Source: Glaucostegus cemiculus (taxonomy: Eukaryota). From it: a stretch of DNA of 64,000 nt. The notes below the pieces were generated by a model that saw nothing but the letters and a program-made list of their open reading frames with translations, was not told where the DNA came from and did not search any database. Made by a program: the position numbers and the translations under genes. Positions 4,143 to 62,036 of this stretch are shown one piece after another. Position 1 is the stretch's first letter, and every line of letters begins with the position of its first letter. The DNA lies in the NCBI GenBank assembly GCA_976551045.1, contig CDPCPM010000024.1, positions 2,728,001 through 2,792,000 of the forward strand, given 5' to 3'.

Positions 4143-4210
4143 GACTGGATAATTCCAATCATTTTCTTGTGCTCATTCTTCCATGGAGGCTTTGCTCACA
4201 TACACATAAG
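4143..4210 (+). promoter_or_regulatory. Conserved proximal promoter of copy A
   Basis: GACTGGATAATTCC at 4143, TCCATGGAGG at 4180, degenerate TATA position TACACATA at 4201, 78 bp before ATG 4279; same spacing as in paralogs. Confidence 0.55.
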
Positions 4211-4278
4211 ACATACATTTAAATGCAAGAGATCTGCACATCTGTCCCACGCACCAGAAACGTGGCCTGTCTCCGATT

Positions 4279-4348
4279 ATGCAGTTTGCTTTAAAGTTAC
4301 TGACTGAATTCATTTACTACCATATTCTTGTCCTAATTGGCGTTCCTG
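4279..4348 (+). CDS. GPR139-like GPCR copy A, coding exon 1
   Basis: ATG...MQFALKLLTEFIYYHILVLIGVP+G, then GTAAG donor at 4349; 70 nt, phase 1, same structure as copies B, C and F. Confidence 0.85.
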
Positions 4349-5235
4349 GTAAGCTCGTTATAGAATTTTGTAATAGAAATATTACTCTATGTTTTACTTG
4401 TTACCTATTTTCGAAAATGCTAGAAAATGTTTCAGGTTTCTTCCAAATTGGTAATACAAATATCCAACTGGAAAAAATATTGCTCCGGACTTTGAACATT
4501 ACGGCTTTAGATGAATCAGCTTCCGTATGTGAGTCGCCCTTGAAATTTATTGCATAATCATTCAAACAAATGCATGACTAGATTGTTGAAATTTGCTCCC
4601 CGAAGCAGAAAATTGTGGTTTCCACGTTTCCAAAACTAACAAAAGGAAATTTGTTCTTCGCAAACGATGAATGTTCTTTGCTAATGACAGTTCGTCCCTT
4701 TCTCTATCCTTCAAACAAATCTAATCAATTCGCCGCGCTGAGTCCCTCCAGTGCATTGTTTGCTGTTCCACTTCCCAGCATCTGCAGTCTCGCGTCTCCA
4801 AACCTAATAATCTGTCCGCGTACGTGAAAGAGCAGACGAATACAAAGGTCATAAAGAACGCTCATCCCGCCAACACCGGGCCACGAAGACGTTCGCCGTT
4901 TGCACTCATCCACGCAGCTGGATGGATGATTGCAAACGACATTATCGCTCATAATCCGATCAGTTTGCATTTTATTCTACTGAAAATCAGGACTACCTTT
5001 CCAAGCATCGTCTTGTCGTGCATACTCCAAGGTGGCTTTGCTGCAATCTATTTTAAAATTTCTACCTGCAGCAGGAGATAGGTGGACATCCTGTACACCA
5101 TATGCCATTGCCAGCCTAACCCATTGACTCTCGGTAACTGCAAAGGGTTCGGTTACTCTCCAGACCGACACCCTTCATGCTGAAAGTTAGAAAGTAATTT
5201 TGTCATTTCTCGATATACAAACGAACGGCGGCATA

Positions 5236-5385
5236 NNNNNNNNNNNNNNNNNNNNNNNNNNNNNNNNNNNNNNNNNNNNNNNNNNNNNNNNNNNNNNNNN
5301 NNNNNNNNNNNNNNNNNNNNNNNNNNNNNNNNNNNNNNNNNNNNNNNNNNNNNNNNNNNNNNNNNNNNNNNNNNNNNNNNNNNNN
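5236..5385. other. Assembly gap (150 N) in the intron of copy A
   Basis: Run of n. Confidence 1.
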
Positions 5386-6334
5386 ATAAATACAATAATG
5401 GCTCTGGGGAAACCTTCATATACGACCGTTCTTTCATAACGCTAATGCACATGGTAGTTTCCTCGCTCGCACTGCAATCAATGGTAGTATTTATTCGGCG
5501 TAACATTCCAAAACATTCCAAGCATTTTATTCATGGCATTTTCCGAGAATGACACAATTCCAGGAGAAGTTTAATTTTAATTTGTATTATGCTCGCTCCC
5601 AATGTTTGTTTGAAAGTGGCAATTATACCATATGACACTGACTCATACATGCAGTCGACGGAGTCACGATATTAAGTTGAGTTTAAAATCTGGGCTTAAA
5701 CTATTTCTTGACAGCCTTCTGTAAACGTAAGTATATTTGAAAAAGGAAAGAAAAATACATTTGCATAAAATAAAAACAAAATATGAGAAACTGACAAGCC
5801 CAGGTCTGTGCTAATTTGATCTGGCTTCCAAATGGCAACAATTCAACTGATTCAGAAGCGTCCGTCTAGAGATTTCGGAGAGAATTGGAGCTGAGTTTCT
5901 GCCAGCTGTCTGAACGTATTCTGCTGAGTCGCCAAAGCTGGGAACTTTAAATATCCTTGGATTGAAATTCGACCTCATATTATAGAGAAACTTTCTATAC
6001 TTTCAGTAGTTGAGATGAAGATGACACTTTTATAGTATATCTGCGTGAGCATCACATTACGCGGTTTAGGATGCGCTTCGTGCAACTGCAAGAGGTTTTG
6101 GGCACTGCAGCTGATCTCGCCGTAGGGGACAACTGTTAGGTTGCAAATGTATATTTGCACGAATTCAGAATCTGTACGCAATCTAGCGGATCTGAGAGGG
6201 CGACGTTCTCTGTACCTGATCCATCAGATGTATTCCAGTTATCAGTTTCATCTCCTAAAACTCGCCCAGGTTGAAAGATGGTAAGGCGAGCTGGGATTTC
6301 TAAATCAAGTAACCTTGAAGTGCTGAATTGGTGT

Positions 6335-6885
6335 AGGACATAGAACGCTGCAGCGCGGTACAGGCTCTTCGACCGAGAATGTTGTGCCGACATTTTATCC
6401 TGCACTGAGATCTATCTAATCCTTGCCTCTCACACAGCTCCCCATTTCTGTTTCATGCATGTATCTATCTCAGATTCTTTTAAATATCCAAAATGTATCT
6501 GCCACGCAACCTCTGCAGGTAGTGCATTCCACGTACCTATCACTCGCTCTGTAAACAAAAATGTACCCGTGGCATCCCCATTATACTTTCCTCTCATTAC
6601 CTTAAAATTAATCCCCTCGTGTTGCCATTGCCGCCCTGAGGAAAATGTCTCTGACTCTCCACTCGATCTATGCCTGTTATCGTCTTGTACTCCTCTCTCA
6701 AGTCACCTGTCATCCTCCTTCTCTCCAAAGAGAAAAGCCCGAGCTCACTCAACCTATCCTCTTCAGTCATTCTCTCCAATACAGGAAACATACCTGTACA
6801 TCTCCTCTGTAATCACTGTAAAGCTTGCACATCCTTCTTATAATAGGGCAAGCAGAACTAAACACAATTATCCTGAAATATCCTG
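6335..6885 (-). mobile_element. CR1 LINE 3' fragment
   Basis: Minus-strand ORF EDRLSELGLFSLERRRMTGDLREEYK is the CR1 ORF2 C-terminus; catagaac tail; absent from unit B. Confidence 0.8.
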
Positions 6886-7289
6886 AAATATTTCATTCTT
6901 ATATTTTTCAGCTAGATTTCGACAACTTTGCAGTTACCAGAGATATTGTCAACAATTCATCAGGATTCCTGCTGTTTATTCTGTGCTATGAGGATATTAC
7001 GTTGAGCTGATGCTAACTATCCTTTGTCTATGTTGTGCCTGTCTAAAACAAGAATACATAGGTCATAAGAAAGCCGTAACAGGGTTATGAGGGATATGAG
7101 GTTGTATTTCTGAACAATCGGAGAGTTTACAGTCTACAACAGTTACCAGAGATTGCGTTGGAAGCAGCTACTCTCACAGCCTTTCAGAAGCATCTCGCAC
7201 AGCCATTATAATCGCAAAGAAACAGAAAGCTGAAAAAAAACGACGACAAAGATGAGTAGTAACAGTAAGTGCAAAGGTCCCCATAGTAT

Positions 7290-7706
7290 GGAAGATCTAA
7301 TGCACAGATCGCATGAAGCTGCACAGTATTGCGGAATCAGACGGTCCCTCACGGGCACAACTCTCCCCTCCATCGAGGACATCTTCATAGTGCGGTGCCT
7401 CAAGAAGGCATCAACATCATTGAGGACGCTCACCAACCGAGACATACCCTGTTTCAATATTACCATCTGGAAGGAGGTACAGGAGCCTAAAGACCAAACC
7501 CAATGTTCCAGGAACAGTTTTTTCTCCATCGTGATCAGATTTCTGAACGGTCCATGTCCCATAAACTCGATCTCGTTATTCATCTTTTGTACTATTTCCT
7601 TTATTCTTTTGTTCAGTTCTTGTCAATGTTATATCTTCAATGAACTGCTGCCGCAAAACAACAAACATCACGACGTATGTCAGTGAAATTCAATCTGACT
7701 CTGATC
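7290..7706 (+). mobile_element. Rex1/Babar-like LINE 3' fragment
   Basis: TGTTLPSIEDIF..RCLKKA and SRNSFFS motifs, tctgactctga tail; paralog at ~18420-18795. Confidence 0.7.
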
Positions 7707-7830
7707 GTTTTGAAGAAATGTGATTGATGAATAATCAATCAAATTAAATACACATTGTTATAAAAATGTGATTTAGTTGCTATTCATTTCGAATTAACAT
7801 ATGCTTCCTGCATTTTCTCTCCGATTACAG

Positions 7831-8736
7831 CTAATATGGTGACAATCTCAATCCTATCATCTGGAAAATGCGGCCACTCCAAATGCATCACCCAGTATCT
7901 ATTGTGGATGGCTGCAGCTAATCTAATGCATTTGATCGTTAGCGGAATACTTTATCGGATATTCGACCAGTACTTTCCATATTCATTTCTCCATTACACT
8001 CCTGTTTGCAGTCTTAATCTTGCCTTTATTTATGTTTCTATTGAGTGCTCTGTTTGGCTAACTGTGGCACTTACCTTTGATACATATGTTGCAATTTTTC
8101 ACCAGTCATTACGAACAAAATATTGTACTGAAAAAAAGTGCAAGCATCGTTATAACAGTGGTTTGTTGCACAGGTGTTTTGCAAAATATTCTAGTGTACT
8201 TCGTGTTTGAACGTCGAGAAGAAGTTAACAAAATGCCATGGTTCTGCAGAGTAAAATCAAGCTTCGACATCTTACCGACTTGGGCTGCATTCCTCTGGTT
8301 GGAAACTATATTAACGCTATTTTTGCCATTTCTGTTGATCCTCCTGTTCAATGCGTTGACTATAAGGCATATTATACTGGCGAACAGTGTCAGAAGAAAA
8401 CTCCGAGAAAGCAACACTGAAAAGAGGCAGACAGATCAAGAGATCGAAAACAGAAGGAAATCCATAATCTTACTACTCGCAATATCTGGAAGTTTCATTT
8501 TGTTATGGGTGGTAAATTTTGCCAGCTTCATCGCTTTCTATTTTACAGATAATCAATTGATGAACTCCGAGGATGATGATACTTTCACGATTGTAGAAGA
8601 AGTTGGTTATCAGTTAAGATTTTTAAGTACCTGCACAAACGCATTCATTTATGGTGCCTCCCAAAGCTGCTTCAGAGAGGAAATGAAAAAAATGATCAAA
8701 CGTCCTCTTGTCTTAATTGCAAAAATATTCAAATAG
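7831..8736 (+). pseudogene. GPR139-like GPCR copy A, exon 2 (frameshifted; ~324 aa if repaired)
   Basis: Acceptor ttacag|CT AAT ATG. ORFs 7836-8210 and 8077-8736 join if the A7 run at 8131-8137 is A6 as in copy B. 7TM motifs SVWLTVA and STCTNAFIY are present; DRF has become DTY. Confidence 0.85.
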
Positions 8737-9420
8737 TTCGGAACAGCAAACAATCTAGCCCGGAGTAGATGTTGTTTAATTGCTGATCAGAAATTCAAAC
8801 GCATTAATCCCCAAAACACAAATACATGACGGCATACCTTTTGCCAAATCTATGTGTGATCGATTAACTGTTTTTCAATATTGTACTTGAGCTTTCCCAA
8901 ATCATGCATAACGTATGAAAACATCTCTATCTGAAATATAATAGCGGAGACAATCAGCTTTGCTGATTTTAAAAGTGGAGTTCTATAGACCAGTTTAGTT
9001 TGTTGCAGAGATTATCCAATCTGTCTGGGCGAACCTTGTTACTTTAACCATGATGGAAAAATGCGAACACATAACTGGTTGTGGAATATTCCTTGGAACG
9101 AAAAAAATAGCAACAATGTTTTCACTCGATGACCTCTCATCATAACTTAGAATTGTTGGAAATTAAACGTTCTTTGAGAAGAGAGGAAATCCTTTGCCGA
9201 TAAAAAAAAAATGCATGAGAATGCAGTGACGAATATAAACTGAATGGCATCTGTGTTTTCTGTGTTTTCCGACAGAGGGTTACAAAAAGTGCTGGTTATC
9301 ATATCTGATTGCTCCGGAGAGTGTGGTGACTTGGAAACAGAACGAATGTGGTGCTGCGCAATTTGAATATGAAATACGGATAAAAGTTAAACATAAAGGA
9401 GGACAATTGTATAGTCAGAA

Positions 9421-12262
9421 TTTCGAAGCCTCCTTGAGATTCTGAGTGGAATTGTGACGATACAATCTACTTATCTCCCAGCTCATAAACTAACTGTTGA
9501 AATATCCCTTACATTATATTTCTTCCTTGATCAGATTGCATTTAGTTCGGCAAACCAAATAAGGTGAAAAATTTTAAAAGAGCCTTTCACACAGTCTTGG
9601 CTTCAATATCCCTGGTATTACCTCGGGAAATATATTTGTTGTACAAATGATGGTCAACAAATACTGATTCCCTGCCTTGGTCTTTGGCAATGGGCCAACA
9701 CAATCCACAATTACCTTTGAAAAGCATTCACCAAATGCAAGAATAGTCAGTAATGGAGGCATAAGGGGTTTCGGTTTACCTGCCATTTGACATGTGTGAC
9801 AATTCCCACAAAATATTACCAATCCTTTCTCGCACCAGGCCAAGAGAATCGTTTAAAAACCTTCTTTACCGTTGTTTTCACATTAAGGTGATTACCTGAA
9901 GGCATACGATGGGCCAGGCAGAAAATCTCATTGCTGAATTTCGGGGATCACAACCTGATAAACAACTGCACATTCCTCACTAACAGGAACATCAGGAGTT
10001 TTCCACTTCAACATTAACACTCCATTTTTGAAATAATATCCAACTGGCACGTTCGCAATCTCATCAATTGAGAGTGTTTTTTTTTTATCTCAATACAGCG
10101 AGCTCAGCGTCTTTGGCCTACTTCATCCTAAGCTCTTTTCTGGATAGAGACAAATCTTTACACTCTGACTCGACACAAGTACTTTGGTCCACAAGTGAAG
10201 AAAGAAAAATCTCTGACAAATCATCATCATTATTTGAATCTAGTTTTAGGCTGCAACAGCGAATAAATAGCAGGCTGCACAGAACCATCTGCATTGGCTG
10301 GATTCAGAGCTTATCTCGAGTCACTGCACCGGATGGATAAACATCGGAATCGATCTTTAACTCATCAATAATCGGTTTGTTCGTTAGCGGCACCGCAGGG
10401 AAAAATTTACCACCTGCAAGTGCATTCCCTAATAACAAACAAACTCTTTCTACTGGTATACGAGGTCGTTGTCCTATTTTAATAAGTCCTTCTACTAACT
10501 CTGACTTGAAAATACCTTGTGCAGTTGTATAGGCACAATGTCTGCTGTAATGCATCGAACTAGCTTTCCCTCACCAGTGGCAGTATTGTCAACAAACTTC
10601 AAAATATTGTCCAACAAGAGGGACTGCAAGGTCTCAGTAACCCGAAGGATTTTCACAGGCAACAAGTGTGTCCCATTTTTACGAAAACGAAACCCTCTGA
10701 CACAAAAGAATGAAATTTATCCCTAACTCCTTCCAACGTCTCAGAATTTGCCTCCATAGAGGACTGAGATTTATCAGCATGTCCAGATCCCCTTCGGTTT
10801 TTAATTGTTTCAACTGTTTGCAAACAAGCATCTGGCACTGCCTCCTTTTCCTTCCTTTTCTTCAGGAGGGAAAAATTAGCTAAAACATGACCACGTTTCT
10901 TACAAAAATAACACGGACAATCAGCAGGTGTCTCTAATACTTGCTTCCGATTATTTTTGCCCTACATACTACGTCCCAATTTGATTTCTGGTTCACCTGA
11001 ATTATCCACACTACTCTTCTGGAAGGTCTCAGTTTGTCCCATTTTATATTTGCGAGTTAAAGCAAACTCAGTAGCTGACTCAGCATCTTCGAGCAATGTT
11101 TCCAATTCCTTCTCATATAAATGTGTTTGTAAGTCATTCTGGACACACCTTTTAACTTTTTCCACAAAAATCAACTCTTTCAATCTTTGATAATCCTCAT
11201 TTGTACTTTGATAGTGCACCATTTCAAAACGCAAACTCTATTCGCTAGCAAACACCATTTCAGTCTGGTTCACATATTTCTTCAGATTCCTGAAATTTGG
11301 CTGTACGCTTCAGCAACCAATTCAGAAAAGCTAGGCACAGCCTGTTTTATTGTATCATAGTCAGCCGCCTCACTAACGGATAGGGCAAAATAACCATGTT
11401 GCGCTTTACCTCTTATTACACTTAGTAACATAAGAGACCAACTGCAAAGTGGCCACATTTAACTCTGAGCATTTTGTTTTCAGAATATTGAAAATACTGA
11501 TCAAGCTGATCTTGCTCAAATGGAGGGACTAATCGAACCTCCCTGCTGGCCATAAGGTTACCACCATAAACATAAACAAAACCCCCACGCTTCGTCATTT
11601 CTAACTCATGCTGCCGTTCTTACTCCTGTTCCTCCGCCTCTAAAATTATCTTCTGCACTTGCACCTCCAGCTTCCTGACTTCTATATCTAGTCTACTTTC
11701 TTCTGTCTCAGTCTCTATCTTCTTTTCTTCTAACTGAATCTGGGCCATCTTCACCTGTACCTCAGAGATCTGATTACACCGGAGGAAAATGTTCTAACAT
11801 GCTCTTATCAAACACCCTCTCATCCTCATAATATGCAACTATCAGTCTTGGAATATCTGGCTCTTTCATAGATCGCTTTGCTGCTTCAAGTTTTAACGTT
11901 CTGGCAACGCTCAACAACTCTTCCTTCCACGCCCTGTGCGATCCAACAAGTGTTCGTGATTCCATTATGCATCAACATCCATGGCTGCTGGTTTTCGCAC
12001 ACACTAGCCAATCAAAAGGAAATGTATCAGATGAATAATCTCCAAGTTGTTTCAAACACAGACCGCTTGTACCGCTCTTGAGTTCCATCCCGGACGAGTC
12101 CTCAATTATTACAGTTTGAATTAATTATTCAATTATTACACTTGTATTATTACAGTTATAGAAGCTTGCTTCTCCCACTCCCAGCAATCATACAAAACCA
12201 CACACACTACCGTACAGGTGCCTTAAAGGGACACTCACCAAGTAGCAACCTGGCTCGTAACA
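9421..12262 (-). mobile_element. Truncated Gmr1-like Ty3/Gypsy LTR retrotransposon (5' LTR remnant, PBS, gag with zinc knuckle, protease, integrase)
   Basis: Minus strand: TGTTACG LTR start at 12262; gag; CYFCKKRGH knuckle (~10890-10918); protease-like ILRVTETLQSLL and LLLGNALAGGK; integrase CHTCQMAGKP, VDCVGPLPKTKAGNQYLLT, QSDQGRN, SSQFHSESQGGFE ending ~9421. Many stops and frameshifts. Confidence 0.85.
12087..12104 (-). promoter_or_regulatory. Primer-binding site complementary to the tRNA-Pro 3' end
   Basis: Minus strand reads TGAGGACTCGTCCGGGAT, 16/18 match to the canonical PBS-Pro TGGGGGCTCGTCCGGGAT, immediately inside the LTR remnant. Confidence 0.8.
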
Positions 12263-15696: not shown

Positions 15697-15762
15697 GACT
15701 GGATAATTCAAATCTTATCTTTGTGCTCAATGCTCCCTGAGGGTTTCTCTGACATATAAATA
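15697..15762 (+). promoter_or_regulatory. Conserved proximal promoter of copy B with TATA box
   Basis: GACTGGATAATTC at 15697, TCCCTGAGGG at 15734, TATAAATA at 15755, 78 bp before ATG 15833. Confidence 0.65.
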
Positions 15763-15832
15763 ATACATAACTTTGAAAGCAACTAGATTTGCATATCTGC
15801 CCACACACCAGAAACGTGGCTTCTTTACAATT

Positions 15833-15902
15833 ATGGAATTGGATGTAAAGCTACTGACTCAACTCATTTACTACCATATTCTTGTCATAATTGGCGTTCC
15901 TG
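15833..15902 (+). CDS. GPR139-like GPCR copy B, coding exon 1
   Basis: MELDVKLLTQLIYYHILVIIGVP+G, then GTAAG donor at 15903. Confidence 0.85.
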
Positions 15903-18795: not shown

Positions 18796-18924
18796 TTTGA
18801 AAAAAAAAATGTGGATGATGTAATAACGAACAACGAAGTAAATGCACGTTATGATAGAAGGGTGGTTTAATTACTATTCATTGCGAAGTAACATATGCTT
18901 TCTGCATTTCCTCTACGATTGCAG

Positions 18925-19848
18925 GTAATATGTTAACAATCTCGATCCTATCCTCTGGAAAATGCAGACTCTCCAAATGCATCACTCGGTATCTTGTCTG
19001 GATGGCTGCAGCTAATCTAATGCACTTGATCGTTAGCGGAATATTTTATCGGATTTTGGACGGGTATTTTCCACATTCATTTCTCCATTACACTCCTATT
19101 TGCAGTCTTAATTTTGCCCTTATTTATGTTTCCATTGACTTCTCTGTCTGGCTAACGGTGGCCTTTACTTTTGATAGATTTGTCGCAATTTGTTGCCGGT
19201 CATTACGAACAAAATATTGTACTGAAAAAAGTGCAATAAGGGTTATAACAGTGGTTTGTTTCATATGCATTTTGGAAAATATTCCCATATATTTTATGTT
19301 TGAACCTCAAGAAGAAGTTAACAAAGTGCCATGGTTCTGTAAAGTAAAATCAGACCTACATCTTACCTGCTTGGGCTGCGTTTTTATGGTTGGAATCCCT
19401 CTTAATACCATTTCTACCATTTCTGCTGATCCTCCTGTTCAATGCGTTGACCATAAGGAATATTATACTGTCTAACAGAGTCAGAAGAAAACTCCGAGAA
19501 AGCAACACTGAAAAGAGGCAGACAGATCAAGAGATCGAAAACAGAAGGAAATCCATAATCTTACTACTCGCAATATCTGGAAGTTTCATTTTGTTATGGG
19601 TGGTAAATTTTACCAGCTTCATTGCTCTCTATTTTACAGATAATCAATTGATGAACTTCGAGGATAATGACATCTTCACTATTGTTGAAGAAGTTGGTTA
19701 TCAGTTAAGATTTTTAAGTACTTGTACAAACGCATTCATTTATGGTGCCTCCCAAAGCTGCTTCAGAGAGGAACTGATGAATATGTTTAAACGTCCTCTT
19801 ACATTAATTGAAAAATATTTAAATAGTTTGTATGGCTTTGGAACATGA
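18925..19848 (+). pseudogene. GPR139-like GPCR copy B, exon 2 (frameshifted)
   Basis: Acceptor ttgcag|GT AAT ATG; intact FDRFVAICC. A 2-nt deletion at ~19353-19356 relative to copy A gives a stop at 19475. A further 1-nt deletion near 19810 shifts the ancestral TAG (19824-19826) out of frame. Confidence 0.85.
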
Positions 19849-26799: not shown

Positions 26800-26886
26800 A
26801 GCTTAATTAATGTGATCAAGTGACTGAATAATTCCAGTCATCTTGAATGCTGCTGCCACCCTGGAGATTTCTCTAAGATATAAGTA
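26800..26886 (+). promoter_or_regulatory. Conserved proximal promoter of copy C with TATA box
   Basis: TTAATTAAT at ~26803, GACTGAATAATTCC at 26822, ACCCTGGAGA at 26858, TATAAGTA at 26879, 79 bp before ATG 26958. Confidence 0.65.
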
Positions 26887-26957
26887 GCAAGTAAAATTGA
26901 AATCATGAGATCGACGTGTCTGTTAAAATACAAAAAAAGCGTAGCATCCCTTCGAAT

Positions 26958-27027
26958 ATGAAACGACCTGTGATTTTGCAGACTGAAAGTATTTACTATC
27001 CTATTCTTGCAATAATTGGAATTCCGG
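26958..27027 (+). CDS. GPR139-like GPCR copy C, coding exon 1
   Basis: MKRPVILQTESIYYPILAIIGIP+G, then GTAGG donor at 27028. Confidence 0.88.
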
Positions 27028-27041
27028 GTAGGTCAGTCGCA

Positions 27042-28111: not shown

Positions 28112-29255
28112 TATAGAACATAGAATATAGATAGAACATAGATGCCTACAGCACAATTCAGGCCCTTTGTCCCACAAAGCTGTACCTAACATCTCCCCAC
28201 ACTATTAGGCATACCCATAGCTTTCTATCTTATTTACCTCCATGTACCCATCCAACATTCTCTTGAAAGACCCGAACGGATTCGCCTCCACCACCATCTC
28301 TGGCAGCCCATTCCACGCACTCACCACTCTATGAGTAAAAACTTACCCCTAACATCTCCCCTATATCTTCCCCCCAGCACCTTAAACTTATGTCCTCCTG
28401 TGGCCACTATTTCAGACCTGGGGGAAAGCCTCTGACTATCTACCCTATCAATACCACTCATCATCTTCTACACCTCAATCAGGACCCCCTCATCCTCTTC
28501 CTCTCCAAGGAGAAAAGGCCGAGTTCCCGCAAACTGCTCTCATAAGGCATGCTCCTCATTCCAGGCAGCATCCTCGTAAACCTCCTCTGCACCCGTTATA
28601 CAGCATCCACATCCTTCCTGTAGTGAGGCGACCGGAACGGAACACAATACTCCAGGTGAGGTCTGACCAGGACCTATACAACTGAAGCAACACCTCTCTA
28701 CTCCTAAATTCAATCCCTCGACCGATGAAGGACAATACCCCATACGCCTTCCTAACCATAGAGTCAACCTGCGCAGCCGCCTTGAATGTCCTATGGACTC
28801 GGACCCCAAGATCCCTTTGATCCTTCACACTACCAAGAGTCTTACCATTAATTCTATATTCCTCCGACCTATTCGACCTACCAAACGGAACCACTTCACA
28901 TTTATCTGGGTTGAACTGCATCGGCCATTTCTTAGCCCAACTCTGCATCCTATCTAATTCCCTCTGTAGCCTCTGACAGCCCTACAAACTATCCACATCT
29001 CCCCCAACCTTCGAGTCGTTAGCAAACTTACTAACCCACCACTCCACTTCCTCATCCAGGTCATTTATAAAGATGACAAACAGCAAGCGTCCCAGCACAG
29101 ATCCCTGTGGTACACCGGAGGTCACCGACCTCCACTCAGAATATGATCCTTCCACAACCACTCTTTGCCTTCTGTGGGCCAGCCAATTCTGAATCCGCAC
29201 GGCAATGTCCCCCTGGATCCCGTGTCTCCTCACATTCTCCATAAGCCTGGTATGT
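28112..29255 (-). mobile_element. 5'-truncated CR1 LINE (relatively young) in the intron of copy C
   Basis: RT motifs [35 protein letters not shown]; (catagaa)n 3' microsatellite tail; absent from unit E. Confidence 0.92.
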
Positions 29256-30937: not shown

Positions 30938-31858
30938 CTAATTTGGTGGCAATCAACATCCTGTCCTCTGGAAAGTGTGGTCTCTCCAGATGCATTATCC
31001 AATATCTTATATCGATGGCAGCAGCAGACCTAATGGTGTTGGTTTTCAATATAATGCTGTACGAGATTAAAGAGGCATACTTTCCGCATTCATTCCTCAA
31101 TTACACACCTATTTGCAGTCTTCTTAATACACTAATTCATATTTCCCTCGACTGCTCTGTCTGGCTAACTGTCACTTTTACATTTGATAGATTTGTTGCT
31201 ATCTGTTGCCAGTCATTACGGACAAAATATTGTACTACTAAAGTTGCGTTGAATGTTATAGCACTGGTGTTTTTGTTAAGCATATTAGAAAATATTCCAA
31301 TATATTTCATATTTGAACCTCGGGAAATCATTAACAATATGCCATGGTCCTGTTATGTAAAGTCAAGCTTTTACACTTTACCAACTTGGGTTGTGTTTTT
31401 GTGGTTTGAAACGATTTTAGCGCCATTTACACCATTTGCTCTGATCTTGATGCTCAATTCCTTGACCATTAAGCATATTATACTGGCCAACCGAGTCAGA
31501 AGCAAGTTCCGAGGAAATAAAAGTGAGAATTGTCAGACTGATCAAGAGATTGACAATAGAAGGAAATCCATCATTTCATTGGTTGCGATATCTGGTAATT
31601 TTATTCTCTTGTGGATGATTAACCTTGCGTGCTTCATCTGTGTACAACTTACAGATACTCAGTTTCTGAAAACCGATTACAATGACCCTTTTACCATTGC
31701 AGAAAAAAAGTGGTTATATGCTGAGGTGTTTGAGCACTTGTACAAACACCTTCATTTATGCGGTATCTCAGAGACACTTCAGAGCAGAATTGCAGGGTAT
31801 GTTTCAACGTCCTCTGTTTCTAATTTCTCATTTCTGCAAACGTTGTTTAAATATTTAG
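30938..31858 (+). CDS. GPR139-like GPCR copy C, exon 2 (329 aa if a +1 A frameshift at 31703-31709 is removed; pseudogene or sequence error)
   Basis: Acceptor ttgcag|CT AAT TTG; intact TM1-TM6 with MAAADL and FDRFVAICC. Removing one A restores EKSGYMLRCLSTCTNTFIYAVSQRHFR...TAG 31856-31858, exactly the length of copy F. Confidence 0.85.
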
Positions 31859-31907
31859 CTGAAAAAAAAACCTGCATTCAGTCAAAGGAAAAGTACACGA
31901 TTCTTTT

Positions 31908-36864: not shown

Positions 36865-37552
36865 CTAATTTGATGGAACTCATCGTCTTCACTTCTCTAA
36901 AGTGTGGTGTCTCTCGATGCATCACAGAATATCTAATATCAATAGCAGCAGAAGCCCTAATGGAGCTAGGTTTCAAGACAATTAAAGAGGCGTATTTTCC
37001 GCATTCATCCCTCAATTACATATCTACTTGCAGTCTTCGGTTTGTACTGATCTATATTTGGTTTCATTGTTCTATCTGGCTAACTGTCACTTTTACATTT
37101 GATCTATTTGTTGCTGGATGCTGCCAGTCATTACGGACAACATATTGTACAAAAAAATTGCATCGAAGGTGATCGCATTGGTGTTTTTGTTACGGTTTTA
37201 AGAAAATAGTCCAATCGACTTCATATTTGAACCTCAGTAAATAATTGACAAAGTGCCATGGTCCTGTTCTGCAAAGTCAAGCTTTTACACCTCATTCAGT
37301 CGGGTGGTATTTTTGGTTTGAAACCATTTTAACATTATTTGCGCCATTTGCGCTGATTCTGTTGCTTAATTCTTTGACCATAAAACATATTTTACGCCTA
37401 ACACAGTCAGAAGGAAGCTCCGAGGAAAGAACAGTAAGAGGAACCAGATTGACCAAGAGACTGACAACACAAGGAAATAGATTATTTTACTGGATGCAAT
37501 ATCTGACAGTTTTATTCTCTTATGGATGGTAAATCTTCCGTGCCTCATCTGG
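36865..37552 (+). pseudogene. GPR139-like GPCR copy D (no exon 1 found, frameshifted, 3'-deleted)
   Basis: ttgcag|CT AAT TTG; KCGVSRC, SIWLTVTFTFDLF, WFETIL remnants; -1 frameshift at ~37151-37158 and in-frame stops; homology jumps after TM6 to the 3' flank (cf. 58600). Confidence 0.88.
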
Positions 37553-44839: not shown

Positions 44840-44993
44840 ACCTAATTATTGAAATCATGAGACTGAATCATTCCAGCCATCTTGCCTGCTGATTCTACCA
44901 TGGGGATTTCTGTGAGATAGAAATAGCAGCTTAATGTGATATCAAAAGATCCGTGTTGCTGTTCAACTATCTGGAAACGTTGTTTCCCTTTCT
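44840..44993 (+). promoter_or_regulatory. Promoter and 5' UTR remnant of copy E
   Basis: CTAATTA at ~44842, GACTGAATCATTCC at 44861, ACCATGGGGA at 44897, TAGAAATA at 44918; 5' UTR matches copy G up to the expected ATG position. Confidence 0.7.
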
Positions 44994-45903
44994 TGTGGTT
45001 TTCCGAGATTCAGTTGACCAGGAGACACAGAACATTCTTCAAGAAGTTAAACTTTTATTTGCAAACAAAAGTTGTGACCGTCAAAGAAAACAGATACTGA
45101 GCACGCTCAGGCTGCCCTCAGACTGCTTCCGAGCATGGCTCACGGGGCTTTTTTATACCTTTTTCATTGCTCAATTACATTATCCCAATCAATCATTTTC
45201 CCTCTTATCTTCACAGTTCTCATCCTTCAAACATTTGTATCCCGTGCAGCTGGTTTTCTGTCTCAGTCATTGGGAGCCCCAGTTATCTATGGGCCTTGAG
45301 CGCATGGTACTAGGTTTATTAGTTTGCAACAACAAACAATAAAAAATGCTATTGCTACATGTTATTAGTTATCAAGTTATGCCACTATCACCCATGAGCT
45401 CTAAAACTTCACTAGCACCTGGCAAAACCATTAGCTACAAGAAGCTATTGTCAAAGCATCCGTCGCGCTTCGCAATAAAGACCATTTGCTGCAGAATGTG
45501 CCCACAGTGTCTTCCTAGGAATGTGTTGATCATCTATTTAATGAAGTTTACAAAAGGCCAAATGTTATACTTTCCTCCTTAAGATCTGTTGGCCATTTGT
45601 TTAATAAGCTGCATATTTCTGCACCGGGTTTCCAGCGCTAGGGCTGAAGAAGAACAGCAGCCATCTTAGGAGGACCAGCGGCCATCTTAGACACGTAACA
45701 AATAATGAATAAACACGAGTACAGCCTCCATTTTCTAATCTAAATATTCTATACCTTACATTTTGGAACAGCCTGTAATCCTGCAGAGGGAAAGTATTTA
45801 TCATCCTCTTCTTGTAACAGTTGGAGTTCCAGATAAGACACTCAAAGAATGGCATTGCAATTAAATGTTGATGTGCTTTCCTCGCCGGCATGAATACACC
45901 ACA
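44994..45903. mobile_element. LTR-like insertion replacing exon 1 of copy E
   Basis: TGTGGT...ACCACA inverted termini, no TSD. Left flank is the 5' UTR; right flank is intron sequence homologous to 56220 onward in copy F. Confidence 0.55.
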
Positions 45904-48471: not shown

Positions 48472-48612
48472 CAAATTTGGCCGCAAATTTTATCCGTTCC
48501 TCAGGAGAGTGAGGTCTCTCTACATACGTAATTCAATATCTTATATCAATGGCAGCAGCAGATCTCATGGTGCGGTTTTTAAATATAATTTTGCATGTTT
48601 TTAAGGAGGCTA
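48472..48612 (+). pseudogene. GPR139-like GPCR copy E, 5' remnant of exon 2
   Basis: ttgtag|CA AAT TTG; ANLAANFIRSSGE*GLSTYVIQYLISMAAADLMVRFLNIILHVFKEA, then a jump to 3'-flank homology (cf. 58775), implying a ~1-kb deletion. Confidence 0.85.
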
Positions 48613-55944: not shown

Positions 55945-56030
55945 AGCCTGATTAATATTATCAATGATTGAATAACTCCAGACATCTTGCAAGCTGATTA
56001 CACCCTAGAGTTTTCTCTGCGACATAAATA
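55945..56030 (+). promoter_or_regulatory. Conserved proximal promoter of copy F
   Basis: TGATTAAT at ~55949, GATTGAATAACTCC at 55966, ACCCTAGAGT at 56002, CATAAATA at 56023, 78 bp before the start-codon position 56101. Confidence 0.65.
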
Positions 56031-56100
56031 ATTGCTAAATGTGAAATCAGGAGTCTCGTATGGCTGTAGAACTATCGAGAGACGTTGCTTCCCTTCGTTC

Positions 56101-56170
56101 ATAAAACAGCCTGTGATACTGCAGACCGAGAGTATTTACTATCCCATTCTTGCTATAATTGGAGTCCCAG
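56101..56170 (+). CDS. GPR139-like GPCR copy F, coding exon 1 (start codon ATA instead of ATG)
   Basis: (I)KQPVILQTESIYYPILAIIGVP+G, then GTAAG donor at 56171; aligns codon for codon with copy C exon 1. Confidence 0.8.
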
Positions 56171-57562
56171 GTAAGGCAGCCATAGAATGGCATTTCACGC
56201 ATATATTGATGTGTTTGACTTGCCAACCTTAATTAATCACAGCCGAAAGGTTTGTTCTGTAGCAGGTTATTAACGCAAACACCTTAGTGAATTGGAAATA
56301 TGAAATGAATTGTATTTTTTCAGTAATGTACCTGAACAGTAATATCATAGTAGTATTAATTGTGCACTGCATTGAGCAATTATGCCAACGAATTTTGATT
56401 TTGTCTCGGGGGCATGTTATATCTGTGCTTTCTTGCATCCAGCAGAGAGATCTATCTCCTTCGAAAAGACGCTGTCAAAACAATAGCAGCAAGCCGGCTT
56501 CTATGAGGAACTCTGTGAAAATGCAGTGTTTCTTCCATTTTCCGTTTTCACTCTATGAAGCAGCCTCTGCCGAGAGTCAGTATACAAATGAAAAATAAAT
56601 GTAGGTTGACCTGAAAGCCTTATTTCACAGTATCAAACATCAGGAACCAATTCCAAATTAGAATTCTTTGTTCCTAATTTCCACCTCTTTGTTGACGAGA
56701 TTTCTCGAAGTGTAAGTTGTGTTTAAGCAAATGAAGATCAACGGTTATATGATAACGAAAGATCATATCGTTATCATAAAAGAAGGCAACAGAAGATAGT
56801 AATGAAGCAATCTGCTAAATCTCTGTATTCTGCCGATCTACAGGCATCGAAATGTGAACATCTTCATTTCAAAGTTGATTGAAAACTTTGTGGGGAGAAG
56901 CTCATGCAAGCGATGGTTGAAACATCCCGTTTAAATATATTTTAATTATGTGTCGGTAACTTAATTTCATTGAAATAAATCAATTTGGTTAATGATGAAA
57001 ATGTTTCATCTGTTTACTTTATTAAAGTATATAGAACTAATTTGTTTCTTTCCTCCGTCCATCAGAGACAAAACAAAACAAAGTTGAAAGTCCAAGTGCC
57101 AAACGTATACAGTGTTTCCAGCATGTAGCGTCTCAGAATATACAGGAGACTGAATCACAGTTCTGATCTCATGCGCGCGCAGTATCTCAACTGCACTTGG
57201 AATTTCACCTCGTTCATCCCGCCATATGGGATATTTCACAGTGGTCTTGTTGCCTAAGTGTCATGATTCCAGGCAACATGTTCTCTGCAAAGGCAAACGT
57301 TCTCACTTTGAGAGCAGAGTAAAATATATCAACAGCCGAGATTTAATTTAAAAAAATGAGACGACATCCAATCCACATGATTGTTTTTGTGTAGCATAAT
57401 GCACTACCTATCCAAAAAAGATCCACCAATGGTAAAGGAATAAATTAAATTCAGGAAGTTTTCGAAATCATTGCTTTGCTGAGTTTGAGTTGCAGCAAAG
57501 GCAGCGTCTATTTCTCGGGTTATTTCTATTTATAATCCATTTTTTTTTCTCTTCGTTTGCAG

Positions 57563-58482
57563 CTAATTTGGTGGCAATCATCATTTTGTATTCTGGAAAG
57601 TGTGGTCTCTCTCGTTGCATCGTCCAATATTTTATATTAATGGCGGCAGCAGACCTAATGGTGTTGATCTTCAATATAATGATGTATGAGTTCAAGGAGG
57701 CATTTTTTCAGCATTCTTTCCTCAATTATACACCTGTTTGTAGTTTTCTTATTGTAATGAAATATCTTTCACTTGATTGCTCTGTCTGGCTAACCGTCGC
57801 TTTTACATTTGATCGATTTTTTGCTATTTGTTTGGAGTCATTGCGGACAAAGTATTGCACAACTAAAGTTGCATCGAAGGTTATAGTACTGGTATTTTTG
57901 TTAAGCATGATAGAAAACATTCCAATCTATTTTATATTTGAACTTCGGAAAATAATTAACAATGTGCCATGGTCCTGTTTTGTAAAGTCCAGCTTTTACA
58001 CCTCACCAAGTTGTGTTGTGTTTTTATGGTTTGAGACTATATTAAAGCCATTTGCACCATTTGCATTTATCCTACTGCTCAATTCCTTAACTATAAAGCA
58101 TATTATAATGGCGAACAAAATCAGGACCAAACTCCATGGAAACCAAAGTGAGAAATGCCAGACTGATCAGGAGACGGACAACAGAAGGAAATCGATCATT
58201 ATACTGGTTGCACTATCCTGCAATTTTATTATCTTGTGGATGGTAAATTTTGCATTCTTCATTTGTGTACAGTTTACAGATACTGAATTTATGGAAACAG
58301 ATATCAATGACTCTTTCACCCTTGCAGAAAGAAGTGGCTATATGCTAAGGTGTTTGAGCACTTGCACAAACACCTTCATTTATTCCGTATCTCAGAGAAA
58401 CTTCAGAGAGGAACTAAAAATGATATTTAAGCGTCCTCTTTTTCTCATTTCTCGCTTGTTCAAACGCTTGATGTATGTTTAG
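57563..58482 (+). CDS. GPR139-like class A GPCR copy F, exon 2 (uninterrupted; 329 aa with exon 1)
   Basis: Acceptor tttgcag|CT AAT TTG; open frame to TAG 58482 with the rest of TM1 and TM2-TM7, MAAADL, C3.25 (PVC), SVWLTV, DRF, ENIP, W-x-C in ECL2, STCTNTFIY and FREEL. Confidence 0.9.
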
Positions 58483-61400
58483 GACGAAAATACCTTGGTG
58501 AAAACAAAGTCAATGTAAGTTATTCATTTAAGATGCTGTAATATAAATAGGTTTAATAATAAATTTGGTGACGTAGTTTTCATTTCCATAATGTGTTTGT
58601 ATTTCTTTTCTTAGTTATCTTTGAAGTAATAAGCAACACAATTCCATCTTTTTCGTATTTGTCACAAAGTCAATGAAACAAGTACATTTGCTTCATGTAA
58701 CTGATGAAAAGACAACAGCTGTCTCAAAAATGTCGAGACATATATGACATATTTAGAGGCATTTTGTGAAGACAGCTGTGCTTCAGGTTGGTCATCTTTC
58801 ATTGGAGCTGGAACAAAAAAAGTAAGTCAAAATGATATGATTTGTAAAACAGAAGATGCTGAGCAGTTTGAAAAGAAAAACAAGTTATTCTGTCTCCTGG
58901 CAGACTCAAAGAATGAGGGAAAATATAAATGTTGTTGTTGGCCACTGATATAGGGTCCGTGCGCTTGCTAATTGCATTTGTTTCTCTCTGGAGAAGATGG
59001 AAAACGAAAGGGCAAAATAATCAATAACCACAAATCAGAAGCAACTACAATTGCAGTAAAAAACACAGATAGAAACTGTTGAAGCAATCAACAGGACAGG
59101 CCGCATCCCAGCTGAGAGAAAACAGTGCTAATGGTGCAGGTCGTGGCCAATCATCAGGCCTTCGTGGTTCTGATGCAACAGGAAATTATGCTTGACGGAA
59201 ATTGTCGAATGCAATATCCTGAGGGAGATAAACTGTCAATCTACAAATACCGAGTGTTCACGCAGGAGTAGGACTGGGAGATGCAACAGAAAGCTCGGGA
59301 CCTCTCTGCCGGACTGAAAGATTCTGTGTTCGGCTATTCTGCATTGATGTATCTTTCCACTGCTGATAATACCACATTTTCAGCAATGAATGCAGTTTAT
59401 TAAATTGGAAGTAGAAGGTAATTTCTTGCGTTTTCTATCAGGGACGTTGTTTCCGCTTGCTTGGTGGGAAGACACGTAATATAAATACAGATGTGATATC
59501 TCGGGCACATGGTGAGGGGCTGAGAAAAGGTTAGTGGATGCTGTATTTCTAAGCTTCAAGCAGAGAACTGGAAGGATGGGGGGAAATACCTGACAGTTTG
59601 CAGCATCAATTCCTTTCAGTCTGAGACTGATGGTGAAAAGAATCAAATAACGGAACCTATTTTTTTAATCTAGAGCAAAGCTGGTTAACGGAGAGATGAG
59701 GCAAATTGAAGAGATAAGTTTGTGAAACTTTCAGTTCTGGACCAATCAAAGGCAGAGTGGAGTAAAAAAAGTACCTGAGTAGGAATGTTTTTTTTTTCTC
59801 ATCAGAGCAAATATAACAACGTTGACTAAACCAGGAGAAAGGGATGAAGTTCTTATCGGAAGCTCGGAAGAAATACAGTCAAGGTCTCTATTGCTGTCTA
59901 CGCACTTACGCCTATTAATTGAAATAGAAAGTCCAATGAAAGATCAGAGATCTTCGCGTGAAAAGTAGATCGGAGCCAAATTAACACCAGAGATGGACGA
60001 AGGTAAGATTCAAAATGAGATTTAGAAGCAACCCGAATACAGTCAGCAGTATAGCAGAATAAAGTGTGACATCAGATTAATGGAGATGTACCGCACAGTT
60101 ACAGACCCTGAACTACGTCCATTCCCACTGATTTTCCTATTTATACTAATCCAATTTTACAGCATTAGCACAACATCTTTCCTCTGCTTTCATTTGCGCA
60201 TGCCTGTCCAGATGTCGATTAATTGTTGTGATTTTATCAATTTCTCCCACCGACTCTGGAAGTGAGTTACAAATATTAATGATTCTCAGTTCTAACTGAA
60301 ACTATCTTTTCAAATCCCTTTTAATACTGATTCCTGTCAACGTAAGCCTATGGCGACATGTTTCTGATACGCATACCATGGGAGAAAATAAGATTTGCGA
60401 TAAAACCAATTGACAACTTTCATTATTTTACATCTCTCTCTCCGGTCATTACTGAACCTCCTTTACTCCAGAGTAAACTAACCAAGATTTATCCAATCTC
60501 TCTCCATATTCAGAAATCCTCCAATCCTGTCAATTTCCTGACAAATCTATTTTACACACTCACACCAGTGCAAACAAAAAAAAAACGGCAGTATTTCAAC
60601 CAGAAAGTCCACAGTACTGCATGTGCGGTGTAACTAATATTTTGTGTGTTTTCAATATAAGTTCCAACTATTATATTGTATGCCATGACCTGTGAAGGCA
60701 ATCTAGGCAAATATATCATATGTCTTCTTCACCACCTTATTTATCTCTGCTTTTGCTTTCAGGGCCATCAGTTCATACTTGTTGGCAGTAAATTCCACCA
60801 GCTACCTTCTCGCTTAATTTTCCATCTGTTCGATAATCTTTCAATATCCTCGATGTCCATAATATCACCAATTTCCCTCTTATCTGCAAACGTACTGATA
60901 ATTACTCTTATGTTCACTTCCAAGTGTTTATTTTTATCACAAACAACAAGGATCCCAACGCCGAAAAGTGCATTTCAATATTAGTCGCAGCTTTTCAATG
61001 CCAAAAAAGCATCTGCCACTTGCACCCTGTGCCTCCTGTCACGAAAAGTAACCAGATCGCCTTGGAGCCCATGCAAATTAACGATCAAGTATGTATGTGA
61101 GAGCAGATATTGGGAAACGGAAGTACGTTATTTTTCAATTACGTGATATAAGCTGCCCTAGCCGAATCTGCAAGGCTGCTCTGACGGCCGTTCTGGACAG
61201 ATTACACCACATAACGATCGCCAAATCACCCCGACCTTTCCGCAAATTAGCTGAGGTTATATCTCCAGCATCGAATGTACTATTCCATGTTGGAAGGGAT
61301 GTTCGACATGATTGTGCAACTCCCATTGGTTCTGCTGTTCAGCTTGAACACAATTCCATCTGTGACATGCCTACTTAAACAAAACAGTTTGTCATTGTTT

Positions 61401-61835
61401 TGGCATACAATTGATGAATCCCATTTGATTTCAAGTCGAAATGGCTTCAACCAATTTTAACAAGTTTCTGCAGTTTTGGGGAGAGTTTGCTCTGAGTGAT
61501 ATTTCTGGAAATTTTCATACTGCGTCAAATTCTCCGATTTTTATTTTATTTCCACAGGTAGCTGCATATTACAATATTTAAATGAGACGTACCAATATGA
61601 AGGAGGATGCATATCATATCTTGTTGTAAATAATTTTAAAAAAAACGTTAGTTCAACATAAACGACATTTATTCCAGAGAAAATGCTCTCAAATTCATCT
61701 ACAATATATCACATCGCTCTGTTTTCGTGTTTCACCTGCTGAAATTTTTAAAGGCTAAAACCTCAGTATCCAGCTCAATACTTTAACTATCATCAGAAAC
61801 ACACGCTAAACACAACCGAACTGATGTTATCAAGT

Positions 61836-62036
61836 CACTGAATAATTCCAGCCATCTTACGTGCCGATTCCACCCTGAAGAATACTCTAAGATAAAAGTA
61901 ACTGCTAAATTTGAAATCAGAAGATCGGCGTTGCTGTTCAGCTGCCTGGAAACGTTGCTTCCTCTCAATTAAGGAACGAACTTTAATCCTGCAGCTGGAA
62001 AATATATGCTATTCTATTTTTGCAGTAACTGGAGTT
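61836..62036 (+). pseudogene. GPR139-like GPCR copy G: promoter and degenerate exon 1 (61971-62036)
   Basis: CACTGAATAATTCC at 61836, ACCCTGAAGA at 61872, TAAAAGTA at 61893; (K)ERTLILQLENICYSIFAVTGV with AAG at the start position; donor site lost. Confidence 0.8.

Follow-up and report, generated by a model that had tools for sequence, protein, structure and literature searches.

The window, a 64-kb stretch of DNA from the batoid Glaucostegus cemiculus, carries two-exon class A receptor genes of GPR139-like type, arrayed in a tandem cluster with six promoter copies, A, B, C, E, F, and G, and an additional gene, D, for which no promoter was found. All six copies descend from a single ancestral cassette, the promoter having been copied whole at each tandem duplication. 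The cassette very probably represents the core and proximal promoter present in the ancestor of an orphan GPCR family expanded in elasmobranchs, inherited by duplication. Sequence comparison supports its reading as a real proximal promoter, partly constrained, in which the upstream element is the only clearly constrained part, its substitution constraint being significant.

The receptor family and its copies in the window

Hundreds of GPR139-like genes of cartilaginous fishes are present in databases (582 matches to the family) but unstudied, and literature searches found no description of them. Among the best 120 matches inspected, 111 are named chondrichthyan non-OR GPCRs and nine are unnamed. 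Pfam assigns 7tm_1, with a weak Srx match, to both window proteins and to five of five relatives, and no olfactory-receptor family to any of the seven; on these two grounds odorant receptor identity was ruled out. The genes are uncharacterised receptor genes of an elasmobranch-expanded orphan family evolving by tandem birth and death, with up to 25 members per species among the matches listed. Two subfamilies are present in the window, and their split predates the divergence of skates, electric rays, and stingrays. GPR139, described as activated by L-Trp and L-Phe, is the sole solved structure matched by the family. The match to the human protein covers residues 3-183 only (E 1.3e-7, versus 2e-134 inside the family), and GPR139 orthology was not supported at this low similarity, the tree containing no true GPR139. 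Atlas neighbours of the family are GPR139-like, FMRFamide-receptor-like, and Srw-bearing clusters; its nearest named relatives are found in the GPR139/GPR142 and FMRFamide-receptor/nematode Srw branch of class A GPCRs, but it constitutes a lineage of its own, one that expanded in sharks and rays. More distant relatives occur in salamanders, coelacanth, bichirs, and teleosts. The GPR139/FMRFamide-receptor branch also gave rise to the nematode Srw chemoreceptors.

None of the gene copies in the window is cleanly intact:

Gene A coding exon 1: 4279..4348, + strand, ATG, 70 nt, GT donor
Gene A exon 2: 7831..8736, + strand, frameshift from an extra A in the A-run near 8130-8136, DRF motif altered
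Gene B coding exon 1: 15833..15902, + strand, ATG
Gene B exon 2: 18925..19848, + strand, frameshift from a 2-nt deletion near 19357
Gene C coding exon 1: 26958..27027, + strand, ATG
Gene C exon 2: 30938..31880 (end approximate), + strand, late frameshift from an extra A in the A-run near 31702-31708
Gene D exon 2: 36865..37550, + strand, truncated and decayed
Insertion in gene E: 44991..45766, unstranded, 776 bp, start codon replaced
Gene E exon 1, displaced: 45767..45832 (end approximate), + strand, without start codon, donor mutated
Gene E exon 2 fragment: 48472..48611, + strand
Gene F coding exon 1: 56101..56170, + strand, ATA where ATG is expected
Gene F exon 2: 57563..58482, + strand, frame open, Pfam 7tm_1
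Gene G exon 1: 61971..62035, + strand, AAG replaces ATG, exon truncated ahead of the donor by a repeat insertion
Gene G exon 2 fragment: 62987..63439, + strand

The initial annotation had credited only five copies with a retained exon 1; gene E has one too, situated behind the 776-bp insertion that removed its start codon. Neither a further copy of this insertion nor a promoter or exon 1 of gene D was found within the window.

Layout and constraint of the cassette

The cassette comprises a palindrome beginning about 57 bp before the TATA box and an O/E-type site 21 bp before it, followed by a short 5' UTR and the 70-nt coding exon 1:

Copy A palindrome: 4143..4160, + strand, 18 bp around TAAT, imperfect, 6/7 arm pairs
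Copy A O/E-type site: 4180..4189, + strand, one mismatch to the core CCCYNGRG
Copy A TATA position: 4201..4208, + strand, decayed, two mismatches to TATAWAWR
Copy B palindromic element: 15697..15714, + strand, 5/7 arm pairs
Copy B O/E-type site: 15734..15743, + strand, one core mismatch
Copy B TATA box: 15755..15762, + strand, perfect TATAWAWR
Copy C palindromic element: 26822..26839, + strand, 6/7 arm pairs, part of a longer inverted repeat of 11 pairs with a single bulge
Copy C O/E-type site: 26858..26867, + strand, core exact
Copy C TATA: 26879..26886, + strand, one mismatch
Copy E palindromic element: 44861..44878, + strand, 5/7 arm pairs, TAAT core mutated
Copy E O/E-type site: 44897..44906, + strand, one core mismatch
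Copy E TATA position: 44918..44925, + strand, one mismatch
Copy F palindromic element: 55966..55983, + strand, 4/7 arm pairs, TAAT core mutated
Copy F O/E-type site: 56002..56011, + strand, core exact
Copy F TATA position: 56023..56030, + strand, one mismatch, first base mutated
Copy G palindromic element: 61836..61853, + strand, 4/7 arm pairs
Copy G O/E-type site: 61872..61881, + strand, one core mismatch
Copy G TATA position: 61893..61900, + strand, two mismatches

A profile search of the window returned exactly these six copies (14-bp elements starting at 4143, 15697, 26822, 44861, 55966, and 61836), and nucleotide similarity between the subfamilies begins about at the upstream element. The distances reported in the initial annotation proved correct: the element precedes the O/E-type anchor by 37 bp in A and B and by 36 bp in C, E, F, and G, and the TATA position lies exactly 21 bp past the anchor in all six. 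The distance of 78-79 bp from TATA to a start codon, given there for five copies, holds for A, B, and C (ATG at 78, 78, and 79 bp) and fails for F (ATA) and G (AAG). Fixed spacing as the sign of a regulatory code was not borne out, since the deficit of indels is not significant given shared descent (element to TATA, one observed versus 4.0-4.1 expected, P 0.085-0.094; O/E to TATA, none versus 1.8, P 0.16-0.17; element to start codon, four versus 8.7-9.0, P 0.055-0.064), and rigid spacing has been described for OR enhancers, not promoters. It is weak evidence because the six copies descend from one ancestor by duplication; the spacing was kept mainly owing to this descent and to the slow evolution of the region, with no rigid grammar demonstrated.

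The upstream element is an 18-bp imperfect palindrome with 7-bp arms flanking TAAT. It is substituted at 0.26 of the neutral rate (CI 0.12-0.52), comparable to the dN/dS of the family proteins (0.21-0.42), with a scan-corrected P of 0/300 to 0.007 across four internal branch lengths; for C, E, F, and G taken alone, the best constraint window reaches only P 0.095. The constraint spans 14-18 bp with dyad symmetry, and the arms are constrained as much as the core (both arms, rate 0.34, P 0.0002, post hoc; core alone, 0.34, P 0.04), the rate remaining 0.26 after removal of the TAATTN hexamer (P 0.0005, post hoc). The TAAT core is intact in four of the six copies, its changes in E and F having left the inner arms nearly whole, and the base after the TAATT position is C in every copy. 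Copies A and C, both with 6/7 arm pairs, differ in their arm mismatches; such pairing is reached by 3% of random sites with the centre within 1 bp and by 14% when the centre may fall anywhere in 14 bp. No other copies of the 18-bp element with fewer than four mismatches were found, and no known single consensus matches the palindrome perfectly in any copy. In the left part, TGAATAATT, which we take to be a variant of the Brn3a/POU4 site, is exact in C and G. The optimal Brn3a/POU4 site ATAATTAAT (consensus from PMC2829025), or a variant differing from it by a single base, was rejected, since the element has two to four mismatches in all six copies. A conserved RNA hairpin was rejected as well: only C folds better than its shuffles (z -4.5), the other five do not, and there are no compensatory pairs.

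The O/E match, called degenerate and best in B, C, and E by the initial annotation, is better than that by the published matrix consensus: the core CCCYNGRG is exact in C and F and in both reconstructed subfamily ancestors, with one mismatch in the remaining four copies. It counts as one ancestral event, chosen after looking. The window contains six exact cores, two of them in the cassette, and 0.6% of random 100-bp stretches hold one; for the 10-bp O/E consensus, the background is 5-7% at one mismatch and about 50% at two, where most extant copies fall. An EBF/O/E consensus site thus appears to lie within 200 bp of the predicted transcription start. EBF has roles in non-sensory cells as well, e.g., in adipocytes. 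The site evolves at 0.62 of the neutral rate (CI 0.32-1.12), versus 0.90 in the other columns, so that its constraint above local background was not confirmed (P 0.06), and neither was that of TATA (P 0.15). A TATA position is present in all six copies, as had been claimed, but a perfect TATAWAWR only in B; the reconstructed ancestral box is perfect, and TATAWA now evolves at the neutral rate (0.98).

The homologous 140 bp is read through, in register, by a sawshark gene model (31.2 bits, a score reached by none of 300 shuffles), and the spacer sequence of the cassette is also alignable to the shark copy. The promoter layout is common to rays and apparently at least one shark. In this gene model the two O/E half-sites look broken, a breakage that the open frame does not force.

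Candidate factors and sites of expression

Quite possibly, EBF and a dimeric factor other than Lhx2 act on the cassette in sensory cells. A dimeric or bipartite factor would bind the palindrome and an EBF dimer the neighbouring O/E-type site; both would jointly recruit TBP/TFIID, the start falling roughly 25-30 nt past TATA, and expression would take place in EBF-positive sensory cells, probably chemosensory. The resemblance of the more weakly constrained O/E-type site to sites in odorant receptor genes is a hint that the family, a large one in sharks and rays, may sense chemicals; an olfactory reading of the cassette is rather doubtful.

The initial annotation had placed Lhx2/Emx2 at the TAAT, beside the O/E site, as in OR promoters; such a code, with the family expressed sparsely in olfactory neurons, is unlikely. 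The order of the TAAT element, O/E site, and TATA box and their distances (within ~90 bp of the predicted start) fit mouse OR promoters as presented in the available text of PMC3247239, as do the O/E core match, the TAAT core rate, and the base composition (GC of 0.33-0.37 over 300-bp promoter stretches versus 0.40 for the window, rising locally to 0.36-0.46 around the cassette), although AT richness combined with an increase in GC close to the start is weak evidence, not being specific. These features of the proposed resemblance stand, while the spacing code, O/E and TATA constraint, and the Lhx2/Emx2 label do not: none of the six elements matches TAATTR, the invariant sixth base C replacing the A of the Lhx, Dlx, and Hbox consensuses (PMC3247239, Table 1), the arms are constrained too, and the core is lost in two copies. 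The extra upstream TAATTA/TTAAT sites claimed for C, E, and F are an unconserved TAATTA in C and E and only a TAAT-containing ATTAAT in F; A, B, and G have none, and 22% of random 180-bp stretches hold TAATTR. According to the accessible part of PMC10116579, ciliated neurons, the OR-expressing type, seem to be missing from the nose of the catshark, and none of eight examined OR genes was seen in its olfactory neurons. The 50 genes most specific to a catshark brain-and-olfactory library include no GPCR, as reported in the part of PMC11979771 at hand, which is weak evidence because V2Rs are also missing there.

Non-neural control, in epithelia (gill, skin, gut, ionocytes) or immune cells, with the palindrome as a CP2/LSF site or a Rel/NFAT-type dyad and the O/E match due to chance or to non-neuronal EBF, is distinctly unlikely. 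GGA-N4-TCC, presumably a Rel/NFAT-type motif, is exact at the element in A, with one mismatch in the other five, and TTC-N3-GAA, which we regard as STAT-like, occurs ~375 bp upstream in C and E, but this upstream block falls short of significance (LR 8.0 versus a null median maximum of 7.8). The CP2/LSF (TFCP2) site CNRG-N5/6-CNRG (consensus from PMC5829564) shares dyad-like half-sites and, as CNRG-N6-CNRG, the 6-bp spacer with the ray element; five copies match it with one mismatch, at opposite ends in the two subfamilies, and F with two, but none perfectly, and the ray spacer is conserved though CP2 does not need it. All these consensuses are short, and the fits were made after looking. In the catshark, OR and V2R-like genes are themselves described as often expressed outside the nose (PMC11979771, in part). 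Plain homology, with the cassette as slowly diverging duplicated DNA under no special selection and its motifs as pattern-matching on relatives, is highly improbable. It agrees with the 60-74% identity of flanks within subfamilies, the 0.90 of neutral rate in the remaining columns of the promoter region, the nonsignificant spacing, O/E, and TATA tests, the spacer alignable to shark, and the pseudogene state of most copies; against it, the element is significant after scan correction under every internal branch length tried, and the distances of the perfect ancestral TATA and the exact O/E core from the start codon are like those in promoters.

Among known systems, mouse OR promoters likewise belong to clustered GPCR genes and combine, in an AT-rich context, a TAAT element, O/E site, and TATA within ~100 bp (PMC3247239 and PMC12547500, in the text available); a conserved O/E site within 200 bp is given for 78% of them and a TATA call for 39% (PMC3247239). 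The ray genes, however, are not ORs, their TAAT element forms a long dyad and has a sixth base unlike that of Lhx sites, and whereas mouse OR promoters share motifs without fixed positions, the ray promoters are simply homologous. The best precedent is the mouse V1R subfamilies, whose paralogs share a broad homologous promoter, as in the ray; the accessible text of PMC3247230 describes no evident homology between these subfamilies, whereas the ray core promoter survives across subfamilies and apparently also in shark. O/E-like sites near the start in 39 of 39 V1R promoters examined and expression of O/E genes in the vomeronasal organ are also described (PMC3247230), and expression of the ray family in microvillous neurons is therefore conceivable. 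The Greek Island Lhx2/Ebf composite likewise has a stereotyped spacing of homeodomain-type and EBF-type sites, but these lie side by side in an enhancer, not a promoter (PMC5608512, in part); it was rejected for the ray cassette, in which 26 bp lie between TAAT and the O/E site's first C.

Significance for cartilaginous fishes

In the prevailing view, cartilaginous fishes rely for smell on a few dozen V2Rs and have almost no ORs, TAARs, or V1Rs (PMC10116579, PMC11979771, in the parts available). It is a doubtful idea that the family is an unrecognised fifth nasal chemoreceptor family of sharks and rays from the GPR139/FMRFamide-receptor branch, its promoter having independently recruited an EBF-plus-TAAT code, similar to the one in odorant and vomeronasal receptor genes, in a nose of microvillous neurons. 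If true, it would help explain a keen sense of smell despite few canonical receptors, and the 140-bp cassette would provide a reporter, ready for use, of receptor choice in a cartilaginous fish. At present the cassette is a lead, not a discovery; it is a small test object, with three mapped sites in 140 bp, and the sole handle in the sequence on where the family is expressed. Should it drive sensory neurons, the shark chemoreceptor repertoire would be several-fold larger and an OR-like code would have arisen twice; if not sensory, the cassette would still define the principal regulatory element in a large family of orphan receptors.

Receptor genes of the window and their relatives

The window (G+C content 0.40, three N gaps, and numerous repeat fragments) carries seven two-exon class A GPCR genes, A to G, all on the + strand and, for the six with a promoter copy, divided into the subfamilies A/B and C/E/F/G. 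Exon 2 of gene F matches Pfam 7tm_1 and weakly Srx, with no other family, and has 582 relatives at E <= 1e-10; of the 120 matches listed, nine lack a name and the other 111 are named and come from sharks or rays, the usual name being "probable G-protein coupled receptor 139". Human GPR139 is the sole solved structure matched by the window receptor, and since this match reaches only E 1.3e-7, the GPR139 label of the family denotes a distant likeness. A profile search for the family gave 138 representatives at 1e-30. Ten distant full-length ones were looked up, and those with names come from salamanders, the coelacanth, two teleosts, and bichirs; the bony-vertebrate relatives P0224, P0232, P0242, P0261, and P0289 (salamanders, coelacanth, silverside, anchovy, bichirs) are likewise auto-named GPR139. 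The relatives P0161, P0225, P0246, P0247, P0252, and P0260 form a subfamily with a longer N-terminus that carries a sequon of the WN(V/I)T type ahead of TM1, in contrast to the window genes, whose N-terminus is very short.

A FastTree tree was built from the 120 matches, 13 further sequences, and five window pieces, with true GPR139 left out. In it, a stingray protein joins C and F (support 0.998), and proteins from skates and electric rays join A and B (support 0.917); both groups fall inside one clade (support 1.0) whose named members are batoids. These groupings make a ray the most probable host and indicate that the split between A/B and C/F predates the divergence of the stingray, skate, and electric-ray lineages. 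An exon-1 pattern scan and a protein scan of metagenome contigs returned no match.

As assembled, none of the seven copies is cleanly intact. A and C have one surplus A each within an A-run of exon 2 (window 8130-8136 and 31702-31708, respectively), frameshifts that may be assembly errors; B has a 2-nt deletion, and D, E, and G are decayed. Gene C, apart from its A-run frameshift, would be an intact gene, and it has the best promoter match. The first exon is conserved; the initial annotation counted it as retained in five copies, and that of E also persists, behind a 776-bp insertion (44991-45766) which has no second copy within the window. The start codon, placed by the same annotation at the expected position in five copies, is indeed ATG in A, B, and C, but F has ATA and G has AAG there. 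F, with the only open exon 2, carries this ATA at window 56101-56103, one change in the element core, one in the TATA, and an upstream UTR ATG out of frame; it is either a young pseudogene or a gene with a non-ATG start. Pairwise dN/dS is 0.21-0.42 in all ten pairs, so the receptor proteins were under selection through most of their history, and constraint on the promoter should therefore show even if the copies are now dying.

Exon 2 of A and B shares a 132-bp identical tract (window 8389-8520 and 19480-19611) spanning intracellular loop 3 to TM6, while fourfold sites of this pair are just 81% identical; the tract is likely a recent gene conversion or else an assembly collapse. One LINE-like repeat (72% identical) occurs in the intron of C (28128-29087) and at 62036-62986, where it cuts exon 1 of G. 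Between A and B, broken ORFs on the minus strand (9574-11237) look, by eye, like LTR-retrotransposon fragments encoding a gag zinc knuckle and an integrase.

Constraint in the shared upstream region

The promoter profile finds exactly six copies in the window, with all coordinates and spacings as initially annotated: a TAAT-containing element 36-37 bp before the anchor (the start of an O/E-type, i.e., Olf1/EBF, site) and a TATA position 21 bp after it. The six promoters are homologous. Upstream identity is 74% over 1.4 kb between A and B and 60-69% over 330 bp among C, E, F, and G, while identity at fourfold-degenerate sites is 0.81 for A/B, 0.69 for C/F, and 0.51-0.65 between subfamilies. Aligned between subfamilies, upstream DNA barely beats shuffles (0.44-0.66 per bin vs 0.54), but between -50 and +24 of the anchor identity climbs to 0.62-0.67, and BLAST matches across subfamilies start approximately at the element.

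Neutral branch lengths were derived from the flanks and fourfold sites, with a star tree for C/E/F/G and an internal branch of 0.15, 0.30, 0.39, or 0.50. For the 14-bp element the rate is 0.2-0.3 of neutral, and of 300 simulated runs 298-300 had a maximum below the best 14-bp window. The rate is 0.62 for the O/E 10-mer (CI 0.32-1.12), 0.68 for the TATA 8-mer (0.28-1.38), 0.98 for TATAWA, and 0.90 for the remaining columns; nearly all the constraint signal is carried by one element. In C/E/F/G alone, the top window overlaps its right half (P 0.095).

Conservation of spacing is a trend and not a significant result. One indel is observed from the element to the TATA against about four expected from flank rates (P ~0.09), and four against about nine over the whole 143 bp (P ~0.06); fixed spacing as a regulatory grammar was rejected. 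A second conserved block in C/E/F/G, ca. 375 bp upstream of the anchors (window about 26484, 44523, 55628, and 61498), was likewise rejected, the scan being not significant; the TTC-N3-GAA within it in C and E is presumably STAT-like.

The palindromic element, the O/E-type match, and the sawshark copy

The element had been read as a homeodomain site of the Lhx2/Emx2 type, which does not agree with its pattern of constraint. A monomeric homeodomain contacts about six bases; here 9 of 15 columns are invariant, and with the TAATTN hexamer removed the rate is still 0.26 (P 0.0005). At the base following TAATT all six copies have C, where A is given for the consensuses (Lhx, Dlx, and Hbox) that are enriched in OR promoters (PMC3247239 Table 1). 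The element forms an imperfect palindrome, GACTGRA-TAAT-TCCARYC, whose arms pair at 6/7 positions in A and C (with different mismatches), 5/7 in B and E, and 4/7 in F and G; 6/7 is reached by 3% of random sites with a centred dyad and 14% with any centre, and these palindrome and arm sub-tests were chosen post hoc, the data having been seen. We read the element as a putative binding site for a factor that is dimeric or bipartite, with or without a homeodomain. It resembles, we assume, Rel/NFAT dyads, and it is one mismatch away from the CP2/LSF consensus in five of six copies. A Brn3a optimal site (2-4 mismatches away) and a conserved RNA hairpin (by a folding test) were rejected.

The 10-bp O/E consensus used initially is matched with 1-3 mismatches, and at two mismatches half of random 180-bp stretches match equally well. 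The published-matrix core CCCYNGRG is exact in C and F and has one mismatch in the other four copies; only six exact cores occur in the window, and 0.6% of random 100-bp stretches contain one. The TATA is ancestral: the reconstructed ancestors of both subfamilies have an exact O/E core and a perfect TATAAATA. Because these matches go back to a single ancestral event and the motif was selected by visual inspection, we give the match a chance only a little better than even of being a true EBF site. A CA dinucleotide at anchor +46/+47, invariant in all six copies, lies 26 bp past the first T of the TATA and is a possible initiator, presumably slightly close for the canonical TATA-Inr distance.

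In the sawshark gene model P0008, the N-terminal extension is a read-through of the homologous promoter region. Over the stretch between -140 and the start codon, its codon-by-codon alignment to the six-copy profile scores 31.2 bits, which none of 300 shuffles reaches. Among the 16 and 14 extensions scored there is no other case of this kind, the best others having 17.5 and 16.3 bits, against 32.4 for P0008; the 17-bit skate matches are confined to the 5' UTR end, and a search for further proteins reading through the promoter gave nothing beyond the query. This shows a promoter layout common to a shark and a ray. By our reading, which leaves wobble freedom, both palindrome arms are compatible with the P0008 residues at 6/7 bases; neither O/E half-site is, and this promoter may be decayed. 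TAAT and TATA both contain in-frame stops, so their change in P0008 was forced by the route of discovery; only a copy with both changed reads through, and P0008 cannot be used against the conservation of either.

Regulatory readings and the receptor family

The cassette is a receptor promoter common to paralogs, with a structure of an already known type. Mouse OR promoters are described as AT-rich, with a conserved O/E site within 200 bp in 78% and a TATA call in 39% (PMC3247239). OR TATA positions are reported to relate only loosely to the transcription start (PMC5318403), and the rigid Lhx2/Ebf composite with adjacent sites is described for enhancers (PMC5608512, PMC12547500), so the fixed 36- and 21-bp spacings are no hallmark of OR promoters. 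V1R subfamilies are a closer precedent, their members having, as reported, homologous promoters with O/E-like sites (PMC3247230). In the catshark, the entire population of olfactory neurons is described as apparently microvillous, with no OR detected in them (PMC10116579), and OR and V2R-like genes are said to be often expressed outside the nose (PMC11979771). These data weaken a literal OR analogy but leave room for a promoter that depends on EBF in sensory cells, microvillous or other.

Part of what was initially observed, and part of its interpretation, is borne out. An olfactory code of Lhx2/Emx2 with EBF, which the TAAT core and O/E-type match recall and the constraint beyond the hexamer opposes, is unlikely. 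Non-neural control, with which expression of receptor genes outside the nose would agree, is rather improbable, and the complete lack of selection on the cassette, compatible with the O/E and TATA rates and not with that of the element, is very improbable. The reading we tentatively prefer, at somewhat under an even chance, is that a dimeric factor would occupy the palindromic element, EBF the O/E-type site, and TBP the TATA; we infer that the sites would cooperate, that transcription would begin 25-30 nt downstream of the TATA, and that the promoter would act in EBF-positive sensory cells.

A whale shark paper describes GPCRs as scarce in cartilaginous fishes, and the terms searched in it yielded no mention of a GPR139-like family (PMC8455134). 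In the mostly non-subscription literature searched, an elasmobranch expansion of the family or its promoter was not found described, and a GPR139 review held none of the evolutionary terms sought. That this orphan shark and ray family consists of chemoreceptors is conceivable, if doubtful. What makes the promoter of interest is the family under its control, since through it one can ask most directly whether these orphan receptors, numbering in the hundreds in sharks and rays, are chemosensory.
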